Assembly (NCBI RefSeq): GCF_004010195.1
Contig: NC_057756.1
Location: 4,906,209-4,926,208, forward strand
Length of the DNA stretch: 20,000 bases
Source of the DNA: Chiloscyllium plagiosum
Lineage: Eukaryota
Direction of reading: 5' to 3'
How positions within the stretch are numbered: position 1 is the first letter of the stretch; every line of letters starts with the position of its first letter. A model generated the notes under the pieces. It saw only the letters and a list, made by a program, of their open reading frames with translations, was not told where the DNA came from and made no database searches. Positions 5,141 through 15,983 of this stretch are shown here, piece after piece. A program made the translations under genes and the position numbers.

Positions 5141-5415
5141 CCTGCTGAGCTTCCTAGTGTTCTGATTTCTAATCAATCTGTTCAGACACATCTCTGGAAG
5201 AGGTGGGACTTAAAACCTTGGCTCCCAGCCTCAAAGGTTATTACTGTACTAGACGTATTCTTGTTATTACTGCAAGTATTTTTGACCAACCTGCTCAGGA
5301 TGTTGTAACACATGTGGGAATTGAAACTAGATCTTCTGGCTTTGACGTAGGGTCACTACCACTGTACTGCAAGACTGTGCTCTTCAGTAACTTAAAAACT
5401 TTTCTGTCAACTTAC

Positions 5416-5458
5416 CTGTCAGTTCACAGTACACAGTCAAATCTTATGGCTGCAATTC
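5416..5458 (-). CDS. CEACAM-like receptor, cytoplasmic micro-exon 4 (second half of ITAM, in-frame TAA at 5446-5444)
   Basis: 43 bp after a 129-bp intron; acceptor ttttggttataacag|GAA, consensus donor CAG|gtaagt. Reads ELQP*DLTVYCELT, which aligns with the CEACAM3 ITAM half ELLKHDTNIYCRM. Confidence 0.7.
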
Positions 5459-5587
5459 CTGTTATAACCAAAAGGATAGCTGTTATTCATGAACAAAAGT
5501 AGCGAGTGATTTAAAGAGATCCTTTGTAAAATAGGGAATACATTGTAACTGGATTTTTGAAATGAATATACAAAATGAGGTCCTGAC

Positions 5588-5629
5588 CAAGTAGAATGCG
5601 TTCCCATCAGGTAGATTTGTATCGCTCTC
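5588..5629 (-). CDS. CEACAM-like receptor, cytoplasmic micro-exon 3 (first ITAM tyrosine)
   Basis: 42 bp, strong acceptor cttttctctttaatttcatttgtacag|GAG, donor TTG|gtcagg, phase 0-0. Encodes ESDTNLPDGNAFYL. Confidence 0.72.
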
Positions 5630-5899
5630 CTGTACAAATGAAATTAAAGAGAAAAGATTATGTAATAAGGTTCTGCAAAAAAATGACACAGTACCTTCAG
5701 AAATTAGACATGTCCATGTTCAGTCAAGTGAGTTCAGCTCAAAGGCAGGTCCTTTGCTCATTCTCAACTGATGACTCATATCGAGCTGTTTTCTTTGGCA
5801 GTCTTTGTTAACCACAGTTTACCACTACCCCCCACCCCCCGCCACCACCTCCCCCCCCCAAATAAAGGCTGGTGAGGAAACCAGTTCCAAGTCTACCTC

Positions 5900-7830: not shown

Positions 7831-7895
7831 CTTCTCTGTTCTTGGAATATTTTCATATATCGCTGCTGAATTTTCATCCAATACAGTGCAGTATT
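7831..7895 (-). CDS. CEACAM-like receptor, cytoplasmic micro-exon 2 (tyrosine motifs)
   Basis: 65 bp, acceptor ttgcattcccacag|AA, donor AAG|gttggt, phase 1 to phase 0. Encodes (E)YCTVLDENSAAIYENIPRTEK. Confidence 0.78.
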
Positions 7896-11358: not shown

Positions 11359-11414
11359 CATTTGCTGTTTGACTAAAGTTCCTTTCGTGTTGTCCCTGTG
11401 TTTGAGCTTCATTC
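11359..11414 (-). CDS. CEACAM-like receptor, cytoplasmic micro-exon 1
   Basis: 56 bp, acceptor attgtttag|G, donor G|gtaggt. Phase 2 to phase 1 fits both neighbours. Encodes (E)NEAQTQGQHERNFSQTAN. Size and frame behaviour resemble the 53-nt exon 7 of CEACAM1. Confidence 0.72.
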
Positions 11415-13218: not shown

Positions 13219-13527
13219 TAATTACTGAAGTAGACAGGCAAAAGGCTGGGAGAACACAGCAAGCCAGGCAGCATCAGGAGGTGGAGAAGTCAACATTTCA
13301 GGTGTAACCCTCCTTTAGGACTGGGGGTGGGTGTAGAGAGAGGGGGGGCGGCTGTGGGCTGCCCAGGCGGAAAGATGAGGTGTCGTTCCTCCAATTTGCG
13401 GTGTGGTAATGTAGGAGGTCAACATTGACTCCTGGTACTGTCTGGCTTTCTGTGTTCATCCAGCCTCCTGCCCCGTCTAATTTGGATTCTGACATCTGCA
13501 ATTTTTTTCTTCTTCTAATTACTGAAG
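13219..13527. mobile_element. Short PLE-derived insertion with inverted termini and 12-bp target-site duplication
   Basis: taattactgaag at 13219-13230 and 13516-13527. Arms aggctgggagaacacagcaagccaggcagcatcaggag and ctcctggtactgtctggctttctgtgttcatccagcct. Minus-strand KLEERHLIFRLGSPQP-like remnant; hammerhead-like motif at 13322-13288. Confidence 0.75.
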
Positions 13528-13738
13528 CAGAAATAATGGAATAATTTTTTTTTTAAGAAAAGCGTGCTTTGCTGGCCTTGGGCAATGCTATGAGGTGCGC
13601 AAGGAAATTTTAAACACTGCATTTACTTCTAATTACTGAAGCAGAAATAATGGAATAATTTTTTTTTAAGAAAAGCGTGCTTTGCTGGCCTTGGGCAATG
13701 CTATGAGGTGCGCAAGGAAATTTTAAACACTGCATTTA
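13512..13738. repeat. Two-copy tandem duplication (114 + 113 bp)
   Basis: Units 13512-13625 and 13626-13738 are identical except for a T10 versus T9 run. Confidence 0.95.
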
Positions 13739-13739
13739 C

Positions 13740-13863
13740 TCATCCTTCTTCCTTTTGATCATCCACGCACTGATCCCGCTGATCAAACCGAGACTGAGAA
13801 GAACTGCAGTTACTATGGCTACTATGACTCCATCACTTAGTTCGGTGCTGCCAGTGAGTTTGC
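13740..13863 (-). CDS. CEACAM-like receptor, transmembrane exon
   Basis: Acceptor ttttcttgcattttcag|GC (phase 1). Encodes GKLTGSTELSDGVIVAIVTAVLLSLGLISGISAWMIKRKKDE: hydrophobic helix plus basic stop-transfer. LSDGVIVAIV resembles CEACAM1 LSPGAIAGIV. Phase-2 donor GA|gtaaat; read-through gives TAA at 13738-13736. Absent from the ORF track. Confidence 0.88.
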
Positions 13864-15348: not shown

Positions 15349-15606
15349 CTTGTACAATCACTTGTACAGTAACGTTGCGGCTTTCCTTGTTAATGATGTT
15401 TTTAGCCTGACAAGTATAATTCCCACTATTATTCCTGCTCAGCGAGTCAATGTTAGAAACTTGTCCCGTGTTTAAAAGTCGACTCCCATTGTACCATCGA
15501 TATCGAGCAGGTGGGATTGACACAGCAGAACAACGTAAGGTAAGCATTTTTCCCACTTCGACTTGAATTAGCCCTGAGGGTGTGATAGAGACATTCTCTG
15601 GTCCAT
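15349..15606 (-). CDS. CEACAM-like receptor, IgC2 (B-type) exon
   Basis: 258-bp phase1-phase1 exon after a 101-bp intron; acceptor tttatttgatag|AT, donor G|gtaaac. The junction makes the CEACAM-typical 'RIN-YGP'. Encodes YGPENVSITPS...LTLRCSAVSIPPARYRWYNG...NNSGNYTCQAKN...RNVTVQVIVQ. 5 sequons. Confidence 0.93.
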
Positions 15607-15707: not shown

Positions 15708-15983
15708 AATTAATCCGCAGGATGGTATGCCCGGAATCACTGCTAAAGTTATTGCTGGCTTGGCAATGATATATTCCTGAATCATTTCTGTTCACATTGA
15801 CTATAGTCAGGGTGACATTGTCTGAAGAAAGTAGCGTTCTGGAATTAAACTGGATATCTCGGCTATTTTTGAGCCATTTTCGTGACTGCACAGAACCTGA
15901 GGCATGGCAAGTTAGTAAAACGGTGTCAGTGTTTTCAACTGGTTTTGAATTGTTGACCAACACAAAGACATTGTAAACTGCGT
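15708..15983 (-). CDS. CEACAM-like receptor, IgC2 (A-type) exon
   Basis: 276-bp phase1-phase1 exon with acceptor ttcacag|AC and donor T|gtaagta. Encodes xAVYNVFVLVNNSKPVENTDTVLLTCHASGSVQSRKWLKN...LSSDNVTLTIVNVNRNDSGIYHCQASNNFSSDSGHTILRIN, with Ig C...W...DxGxYxC and the CEACAM A-domain hallmark NNSKPVE. 4 N-glycosylation sequons. Confidence 0.93.

Follow-up and report, generated by a model that had tools for sequence, protein, structure and literature searches.

The in-frame TAA in the cytoplasmic tail of this Chiloscyllium plagiosum receptor gene is the gene's old, fixed and already annotated C-terminus. We conclude that the gene is a LIPE-linked CEACAM member that was remodelled before the two bamboo-shark genera split, and that it now consists of a leader, a stalk, A and B domains, a transmembrane (TM) segment and a tail with a YEN motif and one YxxL. 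A fixed stop in a remodelled CEACAM-family gene, with the relic of an ITAM behind it, is quite probably the overall explanation of the locus. The window, that is, the whole stretch of 20,000 nucleotides that was analysed, contains the A, B, TM and four tail exons, and all exon phases fit (Table 1).

Table 1. Features of the gene, in window coordinates or, for exons lying outside, in their window equivalents
Feature	Position	Strand	Remarks
Leader exon	window-equivalent 45217-45166	-	beyond the window, on C47
Stalk exon	window-equivalent 32268-32152	-	39 codons; beyond the window, on C47
IgC-like A-domain exon	15708..15983	-	276 nt, phase 1/1
IgC-like B-domain exon	15349..15606	-	258 nt, phase 1/1
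Transmembrane exon	13740..13863	-	124 nt, phase 1/2
113-bp tandem duplication, 99% match	13512..13740	.	begins at the TM splice donor
Cytoplasmic exon 1	11359..11414	-	56 nt, phase 2/1
Cytoplasmic exon 2	7831..7895	-	65 nt, phase 1/0; conserved YEN and upstream Tyr (YxxV-x8-YxxI)
Cytoplasmic exon 3	5588..5629	-	42 nt, phase 0/0; AG..GTCAGG flanks; encodes ESDTNLPDGNAFYL
Cytoplasmic exon 4, coding part ELQP	5447..5458	-	completes the YxxL
TAA stop codon	5444..5446	-	aligned to Gln of intact homologs
Relic of the second ITAM half	5417..5443	-	would read DLTVYCELT; now 3' UTR by inference
Putative donor GTAAGT after 5416	5410..5415	-	consensus donor; no counterpart at the homologous site of the intact paralog

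Spliced in phase 0, cytoplasmic exons 3 and 4 read NAFYL/ELQP-stop-DLTVYCELT (the slash marks the junction), exon 3 closing with Y-L, the first part of the split YxxL. The initial annotation had described both micro-exons, their phasing and the TAA at 5446-5444 correctly, and the remaining two frames of exon 4 are likewise closed by stops. The splice sites had also been called intact, which holds for the AG/GT consensus flanks; the site at 5416, however, is a putative donor, the paralog having no GT there. The TAA lies 28 nt from the 5416 junction and falls in the spacer of the motif, so that no YxxL/I-x6-8-YxxL/I is translated at the tail end of this gene. The stretch 5380-5700 is present once in this assembly, as judged by DNA search. 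By chance, a YxxL/I pair with a spacer of 6-8 occurs in 161 of 14,544 overlapping 30-mers from the gene's own introns (1.1%). Aligned to the intact Heptranchias tail, the nine residues after the stop give a score of 21, which none of the 14,557 overlapping intronic 27-mers of the chance control reached.

The ancestry of this exon pair is legible in its homologs. A profile made from three TM-plus-tail stretches retrieved 4 proteins among 3,736 candidates, the new one being P0007 of the sevengill shark Heptranchias. Its terminus is YMGL-x7-YSDL-VRH, while P0073 of the sawshark Pristiophorus has YMGL-x7-YSDL and P0015 of Narcine YMGL-x7-YCSL. The pattern YxxΦ-x6-8-YxxΦ occurs within the last 160 residues of 8 of the 154 proteins collected, and these three carry it at the homologous place. 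Furthermore, a paralog in the same genome, at C47:8169538-8140371 (-), has its N, TM and tail exons 2-4 intact and encodes ENIYT/GL-x7-YSEL; its tail exon 1 was looked for and not located. A degenerate pattern for the start of exon 4 matches at only two places, this gene and the intact paralog. The proposed descent from an ITAM split in phase 0 is thus well founded, P0007, P0073 and the in-genome paralog all having the intact motif. A sense codon, sought in shark orthologs and paralogs, was found: the residue at the stop position is Gln in P0007 and P0073 and Glu in Narcine P0015, and the codon of the paralog aligned to the TAA is CAG. From these alignments, Gln is likely the ancestral residue. 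The single step CAA>TAA that had been proposed agrees with an ancestral Gln, but the only aligned codon, CAG, is two steps from TAA. Behind the stop, the sequence agrees with the intact paralog at 19 of 27 nt and, on translation, at 5 of 9 residues, and the YCEL found there is likely a non-coding relic of the ancestral ITAM.

The age of the stop was assessed with contigs from 4 of the 24 listed sequencing runs, corresponding to three samples of organism A (2 studies) and one of organism B, a second species. In each of the four runs a single contig covers 5300 to at least 5808. All of them, and therefore two species, have the TAA at 5446-5444 unaltered, a result with which a rare sense allele is compatible, as contigs lose rare alleles. 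Differences from the window amount to 2, 2 and 4 places in organism A and to 17 places plus 2 gaps in 509 in organism B. Since the window departs from all four runs at 5447, a synonymous change in a Pro codon, and at the intronic position 5465, the run contigs are not copies of it. The window letters at 5447 and 5465 are private alleles or errors beside the stop, which is unaffected. The Hemiscyllium ocellatum ortholog P0001 (XP_060708685.1, a predicted model) also ends in YLELQP, at the same residue; organism B represents a third lineage, as its exon-3 codons do not match P0001. With the TAA unaltered in the four runs and P0001 ending at this residue, the stop is fixed and predates the Chiloscyllium/Hemiscyllium split. 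Organism B has no change across the stop and the following 28 nt (31 nt), which has a chance P of 0.35.

The initial annotation had taken the stop to be recent, and possibly a signalling-attenuated allele or a base-call error. Its constancy in four runs and two species and the identical end of the Hemiscyllium protein contradict a recent origin; the same TAA in runs from two species does not fit a private allele, and contigs that are not copies of the window, differing from it at 5447 and 5465, read TAA as well. Checking other individuals at 5446, as had been suggested, returned TAA in the three organism-A samples and in the second species, and a private allele or sequencing error was accordingly rejected. 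No date for the stop comes from Heterodontus P0004, which has a different end after exon 3, or from Pristis P0124, which stops within the second half-motif. As the Rhincodon models end inside the B domain, the stop is not placeable relative to Rhincodon.

Exon 4 is probably the ancestral last exon, because its homolog in the intact paralog has no GT at the 5416 equivalent and continues to its own stop, and because three outgroup proteins (P0007, P0073 and P0015) end 2-3 residues past the motif. The donor at 5416 may have arisen by chance or be derived; among the 26 acceptors scoring at least 4.5 that were listed within 25 kb after it, none was singled out as the start of a fifth exon. Poly(A) signals lie 1,225 and 3,075-3,398 nt beyond the TAA. 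NMD is governed by a 50-nt rule. The earlier reasoning that the transcript might escape NMD needs a junction after exon 4, which is missing from the intact paralog, and since the exon is terminal there, the argument is probably inapplicable. The stop would escape the rule either way, unless more than one intron follows.

That the gene belongs to the CEACAM family, as first proposed, is supported by the best three PDB sequence matches of its A and B domains, CEA (1e07) and CEACAM1 (9gh5, 9gh6), and by linkage to LIPE. Pfam assigns the IgC-like domains to Ig_3/Ig_2/I-set. The best LIPE-family (HSL_N) match is at C47:5.24-5.26 Mb, about 0.33 Mb from the gene (4.91-4.95 Mb). LIPE, APOE and others are given as markers of the CEACAM locus in passages of PMC3628338; an Apolipoprotein search had no C47 match among the 101 matches listed, and synteny stands at one of the two markers tried. 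The RefSeq model of the gene, P0003 (XP_043539134.1, "CEACAM6-like", Chiloscyllium plagiosum), has letter-identical exons and the C-terminus YLELQP. In this model the A exon starts from an internal AG (15896), which costs 29 A-domain residues including the first Cys. On a crude matrix the acceptor at 15983 scores 4.9 and the internal one 1.9, and use of the latter, as in this predicted model, would cripple the A domain. A 6,519-base assembly gap lies immediately upstream of the window, between the stalk and A exons, and could conceal another exon in this assembly. The 113-bp duplication copies the TM donor and may be an assembly artefact.

The gene is a CEACAM member by descent and atypical by architecture. 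Between leader and stalk, beyond the window, lie two broken IgV (N-domain) exons at C47:4950651-4950338 and 4943792-4943442 (-), one frameshifted and the other with stops and frameshifts. No IgV N domain is present in the predicted protein, the three carpet-shark models (P0001, P0002 and P0003) all skipping the relics. These two relics match the N-N of Pristiophorus P0073, whose plan is leader-N-N-A-B-TM-ITAM. In the models of Chiloscyllium, Hemiscyllium and Rhincodon alike the order is leader-stalk-A, so loss of the N domains likely preceded the stop or went along with it. The gene had been presented as an activating receptor; its ancestry is indeed that of an ITAM-type CEACAM, but with both IgV ligand-binding exons broken it is not otherwise intact. 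The stalk exon has a conserved N-T-S and S-G-D in the models of these three genera, and Ser-Gly close to acidic residues is a type of glycosaminoglycan site. In a tree of the A and B domains (13 rows), this gene groups with Hemiscyllium (99/97), then with Rhincodon (100/99) and then with Heterodontus (85/90), an order that follows the species, (Heterodontus, (Rhincodon, (this gene, Hemiscyllium))). P0073 takes no firm position inside the same larger clade, so that its orthology rests on architecture.

The remaining frame is still open when compared with Hemiscyllium. With the full A exon, the model and the predicted model P0001 differ at 34 of 334 residues, and the comparison shows neither stops nor indels. 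In a neutral simulation the lack of stops had P=0.17, which is weak by itself, and its joint occurrence with a lack of indels had P=0.0004-0.014, the indel rates per substitution being 0.118 (from only 2 gaps, organism B), 0.059 and 0.05. The leader is identical at 17 of 17 residues between Chiloscyllium and Hemiscyllium, and three Tyr of the tail are kept in both genera, two in exon 2 (YxxV and YENI) and one in the terminal YLEL. On the other hand, the branch leading to the two bamboo-shark-family genes in the tail tree (7 rows) measures 0.93, against 0.21 for Pristiophorus, and both of the two changes in exon 3 of organism B alter amino acids; the long branch and these replacements are compatible with relaxed constraint. 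A dispensable gene decaying slowly in a slowly evolving shark genome, with the IgV loss and the stop as steps to a pseudogene, would account for the two broken IgV exons, the shortened A domain of P0003, the Rhincodon models that end in the B domain and the tail stop in a neighbouring paralog, and an amino-acid divergence of 10% corresponds to only about 5% neutral nucleotide divergence. We nevertheless consider it unlikely in view of the joint probability of 334 codons free of stops and indels across two genera, the identical leader, the retained Tyr and the exon phases that all still fit.

By sequence, YEN fits a GRB2-type YxN motif and YLEL an endocytic YxxΦ motif, following the definitions of YxN, YxxΦ and ITAM in passages of PMC2832619 and PMC5112662. 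Tandem-SH2 binding at the old ITAM site would be lost. The first exon-2 Tyr is missing at that codon in all four homologs aligned without gaps (P0007, P0073 and two in-genome paralogs), and Heterodontus P0004 has a Tyr one codon after this position. Syk might then still be activated through a new exon-2 tandem, YxxV-x8-YxxI, in place of the distal ITAM. Retention of this Tyr in both genera (P0001 and P0003), its absence from the four homologs and a spacing that obeys the x6-8 rule quoted in PMC2832619 argue for such a turnover; however, the first half is YxxV and not YxxL/I and lacks the D/E at -3 of the consensus in the same source, a single base change could yield the Tyr by chance, and no ligand-binding IgV domain is left as a trigger, which together make it improbable. 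In a broader and likewise doubtful scenario, carpet sharks would have rebuilt an N-N-A-B ITAM CEACAM by exchanging the IgV domains for a stalk with a possible glycosaminoglycan site (Ser-Gly-Asp) and an N-glycan sequon, bamboo and epaulette sharks dropping the distal ITAM and gaining a tandem Tyr motif one exon pair upstream. If true, a single gene would show ITAM turnover in progress, its old motif remaining legible in the 3' UTR.

That the ITAM is restored in some products through stop read-through or a shifted acceptor is very hard to sustain: the frame is open past the stop as far as the 5416 donor and for a few codons after it, but a UAA before a purine makes for tight termination, the intact paralog has other residues at 4 of the 9 post-stop positions, and each of the two AGs that the exon contains as far as the stop (they end at 5450 and 5443) leads directly into a stop in phase 0. 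That an otherwise intact activating receptor carries a recent nonsense allele or a base-call error is scarcely credible, since codons that still resemble an ITAM half and the unchanged 31 nt of organism B, the latter compatible with chance, stand against the same TAA in four runs and two species, the shared Hemiscyllium C-terminus and the broken IgV exons.

Under the preferred reading of a fixed stop in a remodelled gene, the ancestor would have been a leader-N-N-A-B-TM receptor resembling P0073, with four tail exons and an ITAM split in phase 0. In the carpet-shark line both IgV exons would have decayed, a short stalk exon now standing between leader and A domain, and a Gln codon would have become a stop before Chiloscyllium and Hemiscyllium split. 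The product is predicted to be still a membrane protein of the order leader-stalk-A-B-TM-tail, devoid of the IgV face used for ligand binding in CEACAMs and of the tandem YxxL pair for the tandem SH2 domains of Syk/ZAP70. Its role would most likely be adhesive or adaptor-coupled, through YEN (GRB2-type) and the single YxxL (endocytic-type), while canonical ITAM signalling would remain with the intact paralog on the same contig.

Several known systems resemble this gene in part. It has four cytoplasmic exons and a first YxxL split by a phase-0 intron, as described for ITAM-bearing CEACAM1-related receptors (human CEACAM3 and the marsupial, Xenopus and reptile ITAM CEACAMs) in passages of PMC2832619, PMC5112662 and PMC13278318, the first of which gives four tail exons for mammalian ITAM-type CEACAMs. 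An A/B IgC pair and a LIPE-linked locus are also shared, and marsupial ITAM CEACAMs have a YxN in cytoplasmic exon 2, as the shark gene does. Unlike these receptors, the shark gene has a fixed stop ahead of its second YxxL and lacks an intact IgV N domain; it also has an additional stalk exon and an additional upstream Tyr. Mammalian CEACAM20, too, is described with a YxN in cytoplasmic exon 2 and a variably truncated N-domain exon (PMC2832619, in part), whereas here two whole N exons are skipped pseudo-exons; as passages of the same source report CEACAM20 not found outside mammals, the resemblance is likely a parallel case. Trimming by stops or splice mutations after duplication is a recurring route in passages of PMC2832619 and PMC13278318, secreted or GPI forms arising by stop codons in the former and turtle CEACAM1-derived genes losing their signalling exons with a TM donor mutation in the latter, and the shark gene is alike in this. 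Such trimmed genes keep N and lose the whole tail or anchor, whereas the shark gene keeps the TM segment and most of the tail and loses its N domains and half of the ITAM. The hemITAM receptors CLEC-2 and Dectin-1, whose fold and topology are unlike CEACAM, have a lone YxxL near the chain end, as here. CLEC-2 requires a triacidic stretch ahead of the Tyr, according to passages of PMC3576117; the single YxxL of the shark tail is preceded by no such stretch, both genera having one Asp, at -5, and by this criterion it is not a hemITAM.

Other members of the cluster were encountered on C47. A gene at C47:5085758-5155000 (+) has an N exon, four A-B pairs, a TM exon and, in its terminal exon, the ITIM/ITSM-like motifs VVYSQP and TAYAEL; its middle tail exons were not located. 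Its N domain and that of the intact paralog (C47:8169538-8140371) are identical at 77 of 94 residues (82%), and the two genes are candidate shark CEACAM paired receptors, ITIM/ITSM versus ITAM. A further paralog, C47:7395112-7383061 (-), has three N exons, a TM exon and a tail exon 2 with an in-frame TAA, which makes it the family's second truncated tail; no homolog of exon 3 or 4 was found for it within the 90 kb scanned. More CEACAM-type IgV and A/B exons lie at C47:6.65-7.43 Mb and belong to several further cluster members. A TM-like match at C47:5176097 was rejected as a telomere-like repeat.

No publication on this gene appeared in the searched literature on CEACAMs of sharks and cartilaginous fish (mostly open access, judged by titles and passages). 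The abstract of PMC3628338 claims a CEACAM architecture with ITAMs for species ranging from cartilaginous fish to humans, its passages covering teleost ITAMs and, for skate, only ESTs; paired receptors were uninvestigated in fishes as of 2016, according to passages of PMC5112662. The headline claim of a recent signalling-attenuated allele falls, and the remodelled gene varies only modestly on the CEACAM turnover already known. What is left is a dated example of CEACAM domain and motif loss, in sharks, where the composition of the family has been little studied. If confirmed, the pair formed by the ITIM/ITSM-like gene and the intact paralog would extend CEACAM paired receptors to cartilaginous fish. 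Finally, sharks and rays have, like marsupials and frogs, the exon layout of ITAM-type CEACAMs, with four tail exons, a phase-0 split and a YxN in exon 2.
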